From the NCBI GenBank assembly GCA_963793705.1, contig CAWCBC010000016.1, positions 3,908 to 67,907 of the forward strand: a stretch of 64,000 bases of DNA. Direction: 5' to 3'. A model generated the notes under the pieces. That model worked only from the letters and a program-made list of their open reading frames with translations. It made no database searches and had not been told where the DNA came from. Position 1 is the first letter of the stretch. The number at the start of each line of letters is the position of its first letter. Of this stretch, positions 3,543 to 44,667 are shown in pieces. Both the position numbers and the translations under genes were made by a program. The stretch comes from an uncultured Acidobacteriota bacterium (GTDB lineage: Bacteria; Acidobacteriota; Vicinamibacteria; Vicinamibacterales; UBA2999).

Positions 3543-3638
3543 GTCTGCCGGAACGCCTCAACGGCGTTCCTTGTGTCTGCCGGAACGCCTTAACGGCGTT
3601 CCTTGTGTCTGCCGGAACGCCTTAACAGCGTTCCTTCG
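3543..3638. repeat. 3 x 32-bp direct tandem repeat, each unit carrying the palindrome GGAACGCC-N5-GGCGTTCC
   Basis: Units at 3543-3574, 3575-3606 and 3607-3638 (gtctgccggaacgccttaacggcgttccttgt). The third unit is slightly degenerate. The array is intergenic, between the stop of 3755..4216(-) and the start of the SPFH gene. Confidence 0.9.
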
Positions 3639-8859: not shown

Positions 8860-11162
8860 ATGCCTGTGATTCTTGCCATCGAGAGAGATCGACAACAGAT
8901 TACCCAGCTCACTTCGATTGTGCGCGAGCTCGGGGCAGAACTCGTGTTGGCCGAGTCTGCCGAGCGTGCGCTCGCGGCGCTCGGGCATCGAGTACCAGAT
9001 CTGATCCTGACCCCCCCACTTCTGTTACCGAAAGACGACATTGCTCTGACGACTCGATTACGCGAGCTCGGCGCCGCCGCCCTGCACGTGCAGATGCTCT
9101 CGATTCCGATACTGGCAATATCCGGTGTGCAGTCGCGCGGCAGGCTGTCACTGCTGCGCAGAGGCAAAGAGGAGTCGGTCGGTTGCGCTCCGGAGGTATT
9201 CCGCGATCAGCTTGTGGAGTACCTCGAACGCGCCGCCGGGGAGAAGAAACTGTCGGCCGCCATCGTCCAGCACCAGCAGGCGACCACCGGCGCGGTTCGC
9301 GAAGCCGACGCCGCTGGACGTGACAGCGAGGAGGCGGCCGAAGCCAGGGCGATAGACGAGCGGCGGGCGGCCGACGAGGCGCGGACTGCGACCGAACTGC
9401 GCATCATCGAGGAGCAGCGAGCGGCAAAGGCGGTTGCCGAGGCGAACGCCGCCGAGGAACGCCGAGCCGCAGTGGAAGCGGCGATCGCCGCAGCGGAGAC
9501 CAGGGCCGCCAATCAGCAGCGTGCCTTCGAGCAGGCCGCGCAGGCGGCCACGAACGCGAGAATTGCCGAAGAGCAGCGCGCCGTGAAAGCGGCCGCCGAA
9601 GCGCGAGGGCAGAGGAACGCCGCACCGCTGCGGACGCGGCCGTCGCCGCGGCGGAGGCCAAAGCCGCCAGTCAGCAACGTGCCGCCGAGCAAGCCGCGCT
9701 GGCTGCCAACAAGGCGCGAGTCGCAGAAGAACAGCGTGCGACGCGAGCTGCCGCTGAAGCAACAAAGGCCGAGGAACGCCGAGCCGCTGCGGAAGCGGCG
9801 GAGGCCAAAGCTGCCAGTCAGCAGCGGGCCGCAGAACAGGCCGCGCATGTGGCCCACAAAGCCCGAGTCGCCGAGGAGCAGCGCGCTGTAAAAGCCGCTA
9901 CGGATGCAAAGGCCGCCGAGCAACGCCGTGCCGCTGCGGAAGCGGCGATCGCCGAGGCGGAGGCCAAAGGCACCAGCCAGCAGCGTGCCGCGGAGCAAGC
10001 CGCGCTGGCTGCCAATAAGGCGCGAGTCGCAGAAGAACAGCGTGCGACGCGAGCTGCCGCTGAAGCAACAAAGGCCGAGGAACGCCGAGCCGCTGCGGAA
10101 GCGGCGACGGCCGCGGCGGAGGCCAAAGCCGCCAGTCATCAGCGGGCCGCGGAACAGGCCGCGCATGTGGCCCACAAAGCCCGAGTCGCCGAGGAGCAGC
10201 GCGCTGCGAAAGCCGCTGCGGAAGCGAAAGGCGCCGAGGAACGCCGTGCCGCTGCGGAAGCGGCAATCGCCGCGGCGGAGGCCAAAGCCACCAGCCAGCA
10301 GCGTGCCGCGGAGCAAGCCGCGCTGGCTGCCAATAAGGCGCGAGTCGCAGAAGAACAACGCGCGGCGCGAGCGGCCGCCGAAGCAACGAAGGCTGAGGAG
10401 CGTCGCTGCAGCTGCGGAAGCGACCGTCGCCGCGGCGGAGGCCAAGGCCGCCAGCCACAGCGGGCCGCGGAACAGGCCGCGCACGTGGCCCACAAAGCCC
10501 GAGTCGCCGAGGAGCAGCGCGCCGTGAAAGCGGCCGCCGAAGCGACGAAGGCGGAGGAACGCCGCGCCGCTGCGGAAGCGGCAATCGCCGCGGCGGAGGC
10601 CAAAGCCGCCAACCATCAGCGTGCCGCGGAGCAAGCCGCGCTGGCTGCCAATGAGGCGCGAGTCGCAGAAGAACAACGCGCGGCGCGAGCGGCGGCCGAA
10701 GCAACGAAGGCTGAGGAGCGTCGCTTAGCTGCGGCCGCGACCGTCGCCGCGGCGGAGGCCGAAGCCGCCAACAAGCAGCAGCGTGCCGCCGAGCAAGCCG
10801 CGCTGGCTGCCAGCCAAGCGCGAGTCGCAGAAGAACAGCCCGCGGGAAAGGCCGCAGCTACGGCGAAGGCGGAGCAAGAGGTTCGGATTCCGCAGGAGGT
10901 CCGGGACATCGCGGCCAAAAGGCGAGCGCGCGACGAACGGCGCGCGGCCGCTCAAGCCGCGTGGGCGACGTGGAAGCGCCCCGCCGCAAAAGCAGCGCGT
11001 CGCGTCGAACCGGCGATAGAGGACTGGAGCGTGTTCGACCCTCAAGCGGTCGACTTCGCGGCGGTGGTTGCCCAGCTTGACGAAATCACCGGAATGGGCG
11101 GCTCGACAACGGGCGCGAGTATCAGTCCTGGCCGTACGAAATCCCGTGCCTCCTCTTGCTAA
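8860..11162 (+). CDS. pseudo-receiver domain protein with long Ala/Glu/Arg-rich coiled-coil tandem repeats (FrzS/AglZ-like architecture); needs frame corrections near 9606 and 10400-10455
   Basis: ATG at 8860. The N-terminus is CheY-like, but the beta-3 motif reads 'PDLILTPP' (Thr where the phospho-acceptor Asp is expected) and beta-1 reads 'ILAIERD'. The remainder is about 9 copies of a 53-aa unit, read across ORFs 8761..9891 and 9849..11162. Confidence 0.7.
9395..10860 (+). repeat. coding tandem repeat, 159-bp unit organised as a 318-bp higher-order repeat, ~9 units
   Basis: The landmark 'gccgcgca(t/c)gtggcccacaaagcccgagtcgccgaggagcag' recurs at 9847, 10165 and 10483, exactly 318 bp apart. 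'LAANKARVAEEQ' units alternate with it. Confidence 0.85.
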
Positions 11163-34854: not shown

Positions 34855-34968
34855 CGAACGTTCGGTCGTGGGTCCGGGCGTTCGAATCGTTGAGGACGTT
34901 CGACCAGCCGTTCGGCGGGGTGTTACGAATCACTCGAACGGTTCGAACGGCTCGAACGGTCCGAACGA
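34855..34968. repeat. CGTTCG/CGAACG motif array: four CGTTCG words followed by four tandem 9-bp (N)TCGAACGG units
   Basis: CGTTCG at 34859, 34879, 34897 and 34909. CGAACG at 34935, 34944, 34953 and 34962 (9-bp spacing). The array lies 22 nt upstream of the ankyrin gene ATG. Confidence 0.85.
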
Positions 34969-34989
34969 TTCCAGGTGTAAGATCGGCCC

Positions 34990-41587: not shown

Positions 41588-42739
41588 CCTAACCACTGGA
41601 AGCTCACGCAGCGCCTCGCCTTCCGCTTCGGCGTCGTCTATCTCGCGCTGTTCTGCCTCGCCACGCAGATCTCCGGCAGCCTGATTCCCAACCTCTGGTT
41701 CACGTATCGCGGGCTCGGCCGGCTGTGGCCGATGCGCGAGATCACGCACTGGGTCGCGGGGACCGCCTTCGGCGTCACCGTGCCGCTGGACGACGTCAGC
41801 AGCGGCGAGACGCTGTTCTTCTGGATCCAGACGGCGTGGGTGCTCGTGGCATCCGTTGCGGCCACAGCGGTCTGGTCGCTCCTCGACCGCCAACGCCGCA
41901 GCTTCTCCGCGTGGTTGCCGTGGGTACGCCTGGCCGTCCGCCTCGTCCTGGCGGCGTCGCTGCTCGAGTACGGGATGACCAAGGTGATCCCGACACAGTT
42001 TCCCGCGCCGCCGCTCACCGCGCTGGTCACGCCGGTCGGCGACATGACGCTGAGCGCGCTGCTGTGGACGACGATCGGATCGGCGCCGGCGTATCAGATC
42101 GCCACCGGGTGCGTCGAGGTGCTGGCCGGCGTGCTGCTGCTCCTGCCGCGGACCGTGCCGCTCGGCGCGCTGCTCGCGCTGGTGTCGCTGCTGCAGGTAC
42201 TGCTGCTGAACCTGACCTTCGACATCGGCGTGAAGCTGGTGACGATGCATCTGATCGCGCTGGCGGTGATTCTGCGTGGCGCCGGTGGTGCAGGTCGCTG
42301 GCGGCCGTTGTGGCTCCGCCTCAAGGCGGACCCTACGTCGGAGGTCCGGTTAAAAGCGGACACTACGAGTACGGTCGCTCTCGTCCTGCCGATCGTGTTC
42401 GGTGCGTATCTGCTCGGAACGCAGGCGTATATCAACTGGAGCTTCTGGCAGGTCGGCGGCGGCGGACGGCCGAAGTCCGTGCTCTACGGGATCTGGAACG
42501 TCGAGCGGCTGTCGGTTGACGGGCAGGTTCGAGCGGCGGAGTTGAATGACTACGACCGCCGCTGGCGACGCGTGATCTTCGATGAGCCCGAGGCCGTCGT
42601 CGTCCAGCGCACAGATGACTCGTTCGCGCGCTACGGCGTTTCAATCGATCGCAGCAGCGGAACGCTCGCGCTCACGAAAGGTGGCGGCCGGACGTGGTCG
42701 TCGCGCTTCACCTTCGACCGCGCGTCCGACGATCGATGA
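41585..42739 (+). CDS. polytopic membrane protein (DoxX-like N-terminal half) with soluble C-terminal domain; start uncertain (TTG 41585 proposed)
   Basis: Within ORF 41426..42739: 'RLAFRFGVVYLALF...' and at least 5 hydrophobic helices. It contains an in-frame REP-like doublet. Confidence 0.55.
   Translation: MPNHWKLTQRLAFRFGVVYLALFCLATQISGSLIPNLWFTYRGLGRLWPMREITHWVAGTAFGVTVPLDDVSSGETLFFWIQTAWVLVASVAATAVWSLLDRQRRSFSAWLPWVRLAVRLVLAASLLEYGMTKVIPTQFPAPPLTALVTPVGDMTLSALLWTTIGSAPAYQIATGCVEVLAGVLLLLPRTVPLGALLALVSLLQVLLLNLTFDIGVKLVTMHLIALAVILRGAGGAGRWRPLWLRLKADPTSEVRLKADTTSTVALVLPIVFGAYLLGTQAYINWSFWQVGGGGRPKSVLYGIWNVERLSVDGQVRAAELNDYDRRWRRVIFDEPEAVVVQRTDDSFARYGVSIDRSSGTLALTKGGGRTWSSRFTFDRASDDR
42314..42367 (-). 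repeat. two degenerate REP-like hairpins embedded in frame in a CDS
   Basis: 'ctccgcctcaaggcggaccctacg' and 'gtccggttaaaagcggacactacg' translate as 'LRLKADPTSEVRLKADTTS'. Each stem has one mismatch. Confidence 0.75.
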
Positions 42740-42860
42740 GTGCTGGCGGGCGAGATGGACGGCCACAGGATTGATGCCGATCTGCGGCTGCATCGATCCG
42801 TCAGCGTTTCCGCTGCTGAACAGCGGCTTCCGCTGGATTCGTCCGCATGATCCGTAAACC

Positions 42861-43174
42861 GGGAGTTAACGGAGGTTACGGAGGTAACGGTCTCACAGGA
42901 GCAACGGAGATAACGAAGGCGAACGGAGGCTGGTTGATTCGCGGGTGAGCCGGCCTCCGGCCGGCTCTCATCGATCGAGTAAAGGGACGATCACAAGCCG
43001 ATTCTCGATGACCGCATGGGCTTGTGAATCGTCCCTTGCTCGATCGATTCGGGCGCGAAGCGCCCTCACCGCGAATCAACCAGCTTCAAAACGGCACGGA
43101 TCACCCAGGCCTTCTCCGTTCGTCCTCCGATTTCTCCGTTCCTCCTGTAAAACCGTTGCCTCCGTCCTCTCCGG
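42861..43174. repeat. ~314-bp nested inverted-repeat element: 9-bp-periodic arms (AACGGAG / CTCCGTT words) enclosing three hairpins
   Basis: The left arm 42861-42949 pairs with the right arm 43065-43174 (core 'ctggttgattcgcgggtgag' / 'ctcaccgcgaatcaaccag'). Inner hairpins lie at 42947-42967, at 42971-42999 paired with 43019-43047, and at 43051-43065. Confidence 0.8.
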
Positions 43175-43186
43175 ACTTCGCGCCCG

Positions 43187-44003
43187 TCAGTTTCGCGTGC
43201 GGTCGGCGCGCGCCCGCTCGAACTCGTCGCGCAAGCCGCGATCCGTGCGGTACCACGGCACACGCAGCCCCGCGACATTGGCGAGCATCCGTGACGGCGC
43301 GAACGCCATGCGGGCAACCCGCGTCAACGTCGTATTGCCGCGACGTTCGATGCGCCGCACGAGGTGCTCTTCGAGTGCGTCCTCGGCCAGCATCCAGCCA
43401 AATCCGACCGTGGGCGTGATGACGAGATCAACAACCCCCTCCTTCTGCGGCGACAGCCCGAGCATCGCCTCGCTCAAGGGACCAATTTCCCACTGAGTGC
43501 TGTAGGCCGCACTGAAGGCCAACGCCCGGAAGCGGCTCGGCCCAGTAACCGTCGTCTCCGGGCCGCACGACGCGGCCTCGGGCGTCGTTGTTGAGGAGCA
43601 GGCGGCCCGACATCGCGCCCATCAAGGGGTGGGCCACGTAGTTGACGAACGGGGGGCCTTGGTCGTCCCAGTGGTCAAGCGCCTTCACGTTTTCCTGCCA
43701 GTTGCGAAACATCGATATCTGCGTCAGGCGTTGGCGCGACTGCGGCTCGCCCATCAGCCGAAACGTCTGCTGCCACGAGGTCGCGTGCAGACTCTGCAGG
43801 AGCAGCGGTTTCCAGTCGATGCGGTGTGGTTCCTTCGCGGCCGCCGGCGGCCTGGATGCGGTAGGAGTGGTGTCGATGGTGCCGACCTGGCCTGTAGCGG
43901 CTTCCAGCCGGAAACGCTCCACGGTCGAGGATTGATCGTCGCTCGCGAACGATGGGGCACTCACAACGAACACAAGTGAGACAGCTAACGCAAGGGCTCG
44001 CAT
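43187..44003 (-). CDS. secreted hypothetical protein, frame correction near 43500-43560
   Basis: Signal peptide MRALALAVSLVFVVSAPSFA. The body is read across ORFs 43428..44003 and 43187..43522. Confidence 0.5.
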
Positions 44004-44611: not shown

Positions 44612-44667
44612 TGAACCTGCCTAAACAAGACCTTCTGAACCCCTTGAACCTCGTGAACCCGTGAACC
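44612..44667. repeat. TGAACC word array with 8-9 bp spacing
   Basis: TGAACC at 44612, 44636, 44645, 44654 and 44662, ending 2 nt before the stop codon of 44670..45489(-). Confidence 0.75.

Follow-up and report, generated by a model that had tools for sequence, protein, structure and literature searches.

The window, by which we mean the whole 64-kb stretch of DNA that was analyzed, carries on its + strand a gene for a DoxX/SURF4-like membrane protein, whose homologues are named Vicinamibacterales. The Vicinamibacterales are abundant, mostly uncultured soil bacteria. The stop codon of this gene is a TAA at 42855-42857, which is conserved in relatives (alignment, tblastn) and lies 2 nt before a large palindromic element. 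On the other side, 11 nt past the right arm of the element, a convergent gene on the - strand ends at its stop codon (43187-43189). The element fills nearly the whole spacer between these two stop codons. A sequence-only reading had already placed it between the DoxX-like gene and the convergent gene, which is correct. The DoxX-like reading frame, as conserved in relatives, does not end at 42739 but at this TAA.

Neither flanking gene is intact when set beside its homologues. In the DoxX-like gene there are an in-frame TGA (42737-42739) and a +1 frameshift near 42789, before the conserved last 21 codons. The convergent gene, which is 280 aa long in the related locus L001, changes frame near 43538. 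Compared with these homologues, the two genes would be either pseudogenes or the products of assembly indel errors.

Anatomy and fold of the window element

The element (42860-43175; ~315 bp) folds into a single nested hairpin on either strand, far beyond chance. The minimum free energy (MFE) of the + strand RNA for 42850-43185 is -209.6 kcal/mol, and that of shuffled sequences is -120.9 +/- 5.3 (z -16.8; 0/100 shuffles as good). The corresponding values are -215.1 kcal/mol for the - strand RNA (z -14.6) and -118.7 kcal/mol for the same stretch folded as DNA (z -13.7). One long imperfect stem had been proposed from the letters alone, and folding of both strands bears this out. The repeat finder detects an arm-to-arm inverted repeat (42870-42919 / 43124-43173; 50 nt, 80% complementarity), a core inverted repeat (42926-42944 / 43069-43087) and a central hairpin that is an inverted repeat with 33-nt arms. 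The core had been described as a near-perfect 19-bp stem; it measures 19 nt at 95%.

The boundaries of the parts were taken from the parsed fold. The left arm (42860-42928; inverted-repeat scan and fold parse) is built of eight units with a period of ~9 nt. GGAG is found at 42862, 42871, 42880, 42898, 42906 and 42925, GAAG at 42915, and a GGTC variant at 42889; with this variant included, the ~9-bp-spaced units noticed in the sequence-only reading number eight. The stretch AACGGTCTCACAGGAGCAACGGAG (42886-42909) is the most conserved of the family. The arm HMM matches the left arm at 42863-42931 (E 3e-17), and the arm is sequence-invariant across the family alignments A2 and A3 described below.

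The 5' half of the core stem, GCTGGTTGATTCGCGG (42929-42944), closes a multi-hairpin junction. Small GC hairpin 1 (42945-42969) reads GAGCCGGCC-TCC-GGCCGGCTC. The long central hairpin (42970-43048) has a conserved base, ATCGATCGA, and a conserved tip, GATCACAAGCC / GGCTTGTGA. Its middle is variable and covarying, and its loop is hypervariable. Small GC hairpin 3 (43051-43065) reads GGGCGC-GAA-GCGCCC. All three inner hairpins are present where they had been proposed. The 3' half of the core stem, CCGCGAATCAACCAGC (43069-43084), is supported by the repeat finder, the fold parse and covariation in the family. It is followed by a one-sided bulge of 29 nt (43085-43113), which has no pairing partner within the left arm, and by the right arm (43114-43175), in which CTCCGT / CCTCC units mirror the left arm. 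The arm HMM matches the right arm at 43175-43114 on the - strand (E 1e-12). The mirror units, and a bulge estimated at ~30 nt, had likewise been recognized from the sequence.

No plausible protein is encoded, as had been suggested; there is no conserved ORF, and the indels in alignment A2 are not multiples of 3. The element had also been described as belonging to no recognized class of ncRNA. This stands, since an Rfam search matched no family; at a permissive E-value, the window copy and five other copies gave sub-threshold miRNA-hairpin noise only.

Within the 64-kb window, no other copy was found by pattern search, blastn-short, inverted-repeat scan or the arm HMM, which yields only the element's own two arms there. 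The window does hold other repeats. A 32-nt unit, GTCTGCCGGAACGCCTTAACGGCGTTCCTTGT, is repeated in tandem 2.9 times at 3543-3636 (96% identical), and each unit holds a 9-bp hairpin, GGAACGCC-TTAA-CGGCGTTCC. A large tandem repeat at 9450-10855 (periods 159, 318 and 477 nt; 76-87% matches) is GC-rich with many GCN codons, and is probably a repetitive coding region. Two other repeats share the 9-nt period, TCGAACGGT (x4.2) and TGAACCCCG (x3.7), at 34934-34971 and 44636-44667. Their sequence is unrelated to the arm units of the element.

Family size, architecture and pairing

The arm pattern AACGGTNTNACAGGAGNAACGGAG was run on metagenomes, GTDB representative genomes and viral contigs. It occurs at no fewer than 120 loci (>= 120) in JGI metagenomes and at 47 loci in the GTDB representative genomes, with zero matches in the viral contigs. 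Of the genome loci, 45/47 are in metagenome-assembled genomes (MAGs) titled Vicinamibacterales, five of which carry 7-11 loci each; the remaining two are labelled Ca. Sulfopaludibacter and uncultured Acidobacteriota. By the taxonomy of these matches, the family as sampled here is confined to Vicinamibacterales and close relatives within the Acidobacteriota. In metagenomes from soil and sediment, contigs match the window element through its two arms only, and their flanks are unrelated. Nearly every arm match has an inverted partner arm when four mismatches are allowed (125 pairs). The spacings between arms fall into classes of ~55-70, 105-150, 165-175 and 240-266 nt, with the arms retained throughout. 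In the 1.08 Mb of DNA that was fetched, the arm HMM detects 343 arms; the copies sampled number at least 170.

The arm consensus, CTGGAGGTAACGGAGGTTACGGAGGAAACGGTTTCACAGGAGAAACGGAGGAACGGAGACGAACGGAGGG, is a ~70-nt array of GGAG units. The arms (~65-70 nt) are inverted repeats of each other, and the termini are often TGAGG...CCTCA. A full-length copy runs in the order arm, core stem, small GC hairpin, long hairpin (tip ...ACAAGCC...), small GC hairpin, core-stem half, one-sided bulge and arm. Shorter copies are without inner modules and still have the arms. There are two clear subfamilies, A (42 copies; core GGCCGTTCGATTGG) and B (15 assigned copies). The bulge of subfamily A contains three CTTCGTG units spaced 9 nt apart. 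By its sequence, the window element is a subfamily B copy of this ~310-bp nested-palindromic interspersed family. A 151-nt contig from a soil metagenome run (X4) is near-identical to the window element, with 2 mismatches over 42863-42946. It skips 108 nt (42946 to 43055) and is without the first small hairpin and the long hairpin.

The sequence-only reading had implied a novel ncRNA specific to this locus. The lack of an Rfam match and the uniqueness of the element within the window are in keeping with a locus-specific structured ncRNA gene. The census refutes it, since there are hundreds of homologous arm matches elsewhere and the window element is one member of a dispersed family. A copy is also missing from the orthologous site of the closest relatives. 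The related possibility, a chance palindrome of this intergenic region, is contradicted by folding far beyond chance. We give these explanations practically no chance of being right. An ordinary MITE had been named as another outcome, with many near-identical copies flanked by target-site duplications. Many copies were indeed found. They are not near-identical, at ~75% identity within a genome, and detectable target-site duplications are lacking.

The predicted pairing is conserved while the sequence has diverged. Alignment A2 consists of the 11 of the 15 subfamily B copies that are similar enough to align, window copy included. In it 94.6% of cells are paired and 24 of 101 pairs have changed on both sides, compared with 32-46% paired cells in slid controls. 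Alignment A3 (subfamily A, 34 sequences) has 97.5% of cells paired and 26 of 76 pairs changed on both sides (slid controls, 32-45%). For both alignments, 0/500 shuffles reach the observed values on all five measures, and the slid controls are also exceeded. The core-stem helix covaries strongly, with both-side changes in 10 of its 18 pairs in A2; helix 7, in the long hairpin, has them in 12 of 30 pairs. Small hairpins 1 (helix 6) and 3 (helix 8) are sequence-invariant in subfamily B. The same division is seen in A2 and A3, where the arms, the small hairpins and the base and tip of the long hairpin are near-invariant, and covariation is seen in the core stem and in the middle part of the long hairpin. 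A covariation check in homologous loci had been proposed together with the sequence-only reading; its outcome is that pairing is kept, with many compensatory changes.

Copies inside one MAG are ~75% identical (maximum 84%), and pairing has therefore been kept through substantial divergence. The copies are old and diverged and do not stem from a recent burst; this also fits a functional element maintained by the host. One orthologous locus is filled in four related contigs (L010, L023, L159 and L079). Between L010 and L023 there are several compensatory double changes in the long hairpin. For this one orthologous pair, the element is 79% identical and the coding flanks are 70% and 81% identical, a hint that the element is constrained where it stands.

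A wobble pair is observed near the tip of the long hairpin in subfamily A (e.g. L056:1935-1975 and L010:1335-1375). It is G.T in 22 copies (ACAAGCCGC/GCGGTTTGT), A.C in 9 copies (ACAAACCGC/GCGGCTTGT) and G-C in 1 copy, so that it is almost never Watson-Crick. The orthologues L010 and L023 differ by exactly this wobble swap, G.T versus A.C. In some subfamily A copies the two small hairpins are in swapped order, and therefore the inner modules occur in both orientations relative to the rest.

Insertion sites, gene context and transcription

The closest DoxX-like homologues (L001-L004; 85-86% identity) have the same gene order as the window. Their spacer is 32-35 nt, versus 327 nt in the window, where the conserved C-terminus ...RWIRPHDP* ends at 42855-42857 in the alignment. 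Because close relatives have ~33 nt between the same two convergent genes, the window copy is an insertion. The best-supported reading is that it entered the convergent-gene spacer after the lineage had split from its nearest sampled relatives. In L009, which is more distantly related, the stop codon of the orthologous gene is followed after 2-3 nt by an element of the other subfamily, and the downstream gene differs; the simplest reading is an independent insertion at an analogous position. Elsewhere in the window, 63120-63456 matches, at 69% identity, the sequence formed by joining the two flanks of the L027 element. Judging from this identity, it is the unoccupied counterpart of the L027 insertion site.

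The neighboring genes, called with a crude GC3-based gene caller, are convergent in 24 cases, tandem in 43 and divergent in 6. Facing stop codons lie 19-36 nt outside the arm pattern at ~70 of 105 ends, i.e. at the terminus or in the first unit; this closeness is partly due to short 3' spacers. The junctions read T|GAGG, TA|GAGG or TAA|GAGG, so that the stop codons of many genes are built partly from the end of the element. In the literature, we found no description of such a repeat family in Acidobacteriota. A family in soil Vicinamibacterales with copies located just after stop codons is apparently undescribed.

We looked for signatures of mobility around the copies. For target-site duplications of 6 nt or more (>= 6 nt), direct repeats between left and right flanks were not above mismatched control pairs; the exact termini are fuzzy, and duplications of 2-4 nt are below the reach of this comparison. 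A TA duplication was rejected, as the three forms of the junction are inconsistent with it. In ~1 Mb of neighborhoods around copies, no transposase or RAYT adjoins an element. No integrase was found near copies in the neighborhoods examined, and no autonomous IS with the same ends among the sampled loci. Recurrent neighbors were considered as candidate transposases and rejected, being only large, ordinary paralogous families, one of them presumably TIGR03435-like. Widely spaced arm pairs were also considered as autonomous elements. These contain a putative transposase fragment (L069) or a defense-like island (L143) and no intact transposase. In L069:111-1523, arms 1.4 kb apart enclose a 133-aa ORF and small ORFs, and Pfam gives no family for any of them. 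Judged by eye, we take the 133-aa ORF to be a C-terminal fragment of an IS1/IS1595-like transposase.

Flanks are identical between the loci L135:3900-4130 (filled) and L095:5130-5160 (emptied). Of the left arm, L095 still has the outermost 16 nt, and a 9-nt repeat, CGGAGCCTA, borders the segment by which the two loci differ. This single 9-nt case was considered as a target-site duplication; a microhomology deletion that spared those 16 nt is the better reading. From this comparison, the L095 state looks like an excision-like deletion.

A few copies are associated with accessory genes. In L143:3270-5900, the left arm directly follows a stop codon and the right arm is 2.5 kb away. The arms flank a lower-GC island of 2.4 kb encoding Abi_alpha, DUF5343 and a Swt1-like HEPN domain (HEPN_Swt1). 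The island is defense-like cargo, located within a single element or, alternatively, separating two halves of an element. In L012:6355-7530, two nearly identical full-length direct copies flank a small PD-(D/E)XK (PDDEXK_3) gene, presumably of the GxxExxY type, whose reading frame extends into the arm of the second copy. In L140, two + strand arms have the same 866-nt spacing as in L012 (arm positions only).

These cases bear on a further explanation, in which the element would be a DNA-level protein-binding or recombination site. Its units would array a DNA-binding protein on one face of the helix, or the palindrome would be an integration site for accessory genes. BIMEs bind IHF and gyrase. 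The 9-10-bp period of the arm units, their invariant sequence on both arms and the orientation-independent behavior of the element are consistent with such a site, as are the arms flanking the island in L143 and the direct copies flanking the gene in L012. However, cargo is present in only two or three of ~170 copies, no recombinase adjoins the L143 or L012 cargo, and a candidate binding protein is not known. The hairpins covary internally, which implies that folding within one strand is important, and not duplex binding sites alone. We regard this explanation as very improbable.

Strand tests were used to compare the two transcripts. The interior points the same way as the upstream gene in 15 copies and the opposite way in 15. 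The sense strand is not favored in MFE over the antisense strand (22 vs 26, p 0.67), nor is it enriched in G.U pairs; selection on one transcript is therefore not indicated. The terminator scan found no U-tract after either arm and no terminator-like site in 42500-43500. In two rhizosphere metatranscriptomes, contigs with at least 99% identity (>= 99%) to L010 run from the apex of the long hairpin to ~25 nt past the right arm, which is half of the element; the depth of the flanking CDS is 0 in these data. At L056, the flanking CDS and the arm are joined in metatranscriptome contigs on both sides. These elements are transcribed, as far as assembled contigs that carry no strand information and may include DNA carry-over can tell. 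A further RNA run (X23), consulted for the window copy and with a library labelled genomic, contains only arms of other family members.

Once transcribed, a hairpin with a predicted -210 kcal/mol must affect the 3' ends of neighboring mRNAs. REP elements have exonuclease-barrier and terminator roles and affect translation termination, and stop-codon-proximal REPs have reportedly been linked with trans-translation in one study. By analogy, plausible roles for the elements described here would be those of an exonuclease barrier or a terminator or, where the hairpin begins at a stop codon, an influence on translation termination.

Such effects could be what maintains the family. The element would then be a host-functional, cis-acting RNA module at mRNA 3' ends, multiplied and kept for its benefit to gene expression. 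It could act as a factor-independent bidirectional terminator, as an mRNA stabilizer or, like stop-codon-proximal REPs, as a regulator coupled to translation termination. In one variant, ribosomes might possibly be contacted by the GGAGG / CCUCC arms, whose words look like SD and anti-SD sequences; owing to the symmetry of the arms, the RNA of either strand begins with GGAG repeats and ends with CUCC repeats. The extreme stability of the hairpin suits this explanation, and so does its location, with ends that abut or overlap stop codons in most copies and with few copies between divergent genes. It is also consistent with strongly conserved pairing in old, diverged copies, with an element as conserved as its coding flanks at one orthologous pair, and with element RNA contiguous with flanking CDS in metatranscriptomes. 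However, the sense strand is not favored in stability or G.U content, the interior orientation is random, the inner modules occur inverted relative to each other and a U-tract is lacking. The element is missing at the same site in close relatives, and is thus dispensable for these genes. Both flanking genes in the window are, in addition, disrupted. We consider a host function to be an unlikely, though still serious, rival explanation of the family.

Interpretation and comparison with known systems

The family is large, dispersed and modular. It is intergenic at gene 3' ends, is present or absent at the same site among related genomes, and has kept its pairing despite ~25% divergence. We consider it probable that these are REPIN/BIME/MITE-like non-autonomous palindromic elements, which probably move as a folded single strand and end as stable hairpins at mRNA 3' ends. 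A hypothetical enzyme supplied in trans would mobilize them by recognizing the invariant arm and hairpin motifs. By analogy with the IS200/RAYT and REPIN model, this enzyme would most likely act on the folded single strand. Such action would explain the absent target-site duplications, the constraint on structure over sequence and the indifference to orientation; conserved ends with a constrained variable middle, and inverted inner modules, also point to folded-strand recognition. After insertion, the element would be transcribed as the tail of neighboring mRNAs. The stable hairpin would then probably be an exonuclease barrier, or a bidirectional stop between two convergent genes. This role would be a side effect, or co-opted, and not the reason for the spread of the element.

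A more unusual proposal, and a decidedly unlikely one, has two forms. The family could represent a new mobilization or maintenance system that inserts elements precisely at stop codons without target duplication. A protein would then read the folded four-way junction through the invariant hairpin tips, the conserved G.T / A.C wobble and the 9-nt iterons. Alternatively, it could be a stop-codon-coupled 3'-end regulator, with GGAGG / CCUCC arms that would engage terminating ribosomes. Either form, if true, would go beyond the REPIN and MITE models.

The elements are also of practical concern. Palindromes of ~310 bp likely break assemblies. For annotation, the ends of elements supply the stop codons of adjacent genes in many copies. 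The presence or absence of a copy is a marker of strain differences, and elements may be hot spots for the gain of accessory genes, e.g. the L143 defense-like island. The covariation is strong enough to model, and two questions thereby become testable: which factor reads the structure, and whether it does so on RNA or on single-stranded DNA.

The preferred reading, a REPIN/BIME/MITE-like element, can be set against known systems. Integron attC sites are similar in that the folded single strand defines the site more than the sequence does, in their location at gene 3' ends, and in that rare copies of the family flank accessory genes. Unlike the family, attC sites are 57-141 nt long and have R''/R' cores, extrahelical bases and same-orientation arrays next to an integrase, none of which is found here. 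The family elements are ~310 nt long, mostly solitary and in either orientation. A Rho-independent terminator also differs, as the element is a GC-rich hairpin without a U-tract.

As a structural analogy only, parvovirus/AAV ITRs and the origins of HUH endonucleases may be likened to the element, with a long stem that has short tandem repeats and encloses a junction of small internal hairpins. AAV ITRs occur with their asymmetric inner part in 'flip' and 'flop' orientations, which may also be compared with the inner modules. Unlike ITRs, the family consists of interspersed chromosomal copies and not of replicon termini, with no associated Rep/HUH gene and no match in viral contigs.

Bacterial MITEs include Correia/CREE in Neisseria, ERIC/IRU in enterobacteria, RUP/BOX in pneumococci and Nezha in cyanobacteria. 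They lie near or extend into gene ends, can supply stop codons and are co-transcribed with neighbors; deletion derivatives exist. PMC3184786 and PMC10969869 are reviews of such elements. The family resembles them in these respects and is likewise small (<~600 bp), non-coding and multi-copy, with long terminal inverted repeats that form a long hairpin as RNA. Unlike MITEs, it has no detectable target-site duplication and no related autonomous IS among the sampled loci. Its copies are old, ~75% identical rather than near-identical, and their internal stems covary extensively.

REPINs are REP doublets that fold into hairpins and are mobilized by RAYT tyrosine transposases (Y1 HUH). Their ends are conserved, the hairpin spacer varies with compensatory changes, and excision is asymmetric (PMC3116915). 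The family is likewise an inverted doublet that forms a hairpin with compensatory changes in its spacer, by which a REPIN is recognized. As in REPINs and BIMEs, a symmetric palindrome has two highly conserved ends and a less conserved middle that keeps its pairing by compensatory changes (PMC3116915). The location is also shared with REPINs, REPs and BIMEs, intergenic and often just past stop codons, without target-site duplication. As with REPINs, diverged populations persist within a lineage, and excision-like deletions leave part of one end; the L135/L095 deletion recalls the asymmetric REPIN excisions (PMC3116915). The mosaic, modular build resembles that of BIMEs (see also PMC2817692, PMC3733652).

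There are also differences from these elements. At ~310 bp, compared with ~70-110 bp, the family is about three times longer than REPINs, and its interior is a junction of three hairpins. Its ends are arrays of 9-nt GGAG units, unlike the 20-40-nt REP palindrome with a GTAG or CGTC tag; no palindrome with either tag is present in the arm consensus. No RAYT adjoins the sampled copies, and the phylum is Acidobacteriota, not Proteobacteria. With this family, long-lived palindromic repeats of the REPIN/BIME type would be known from another phylum, in a much larger and more elaborate architecture with periodic arms and a three-hairpin junction. It is not categorically new on present evidence. It works like REPIN/MITE elements, and differs in its ~310 bp size, its arms of ~eight 9-nt units, and its three-hairpin junction with a conserved wobble.
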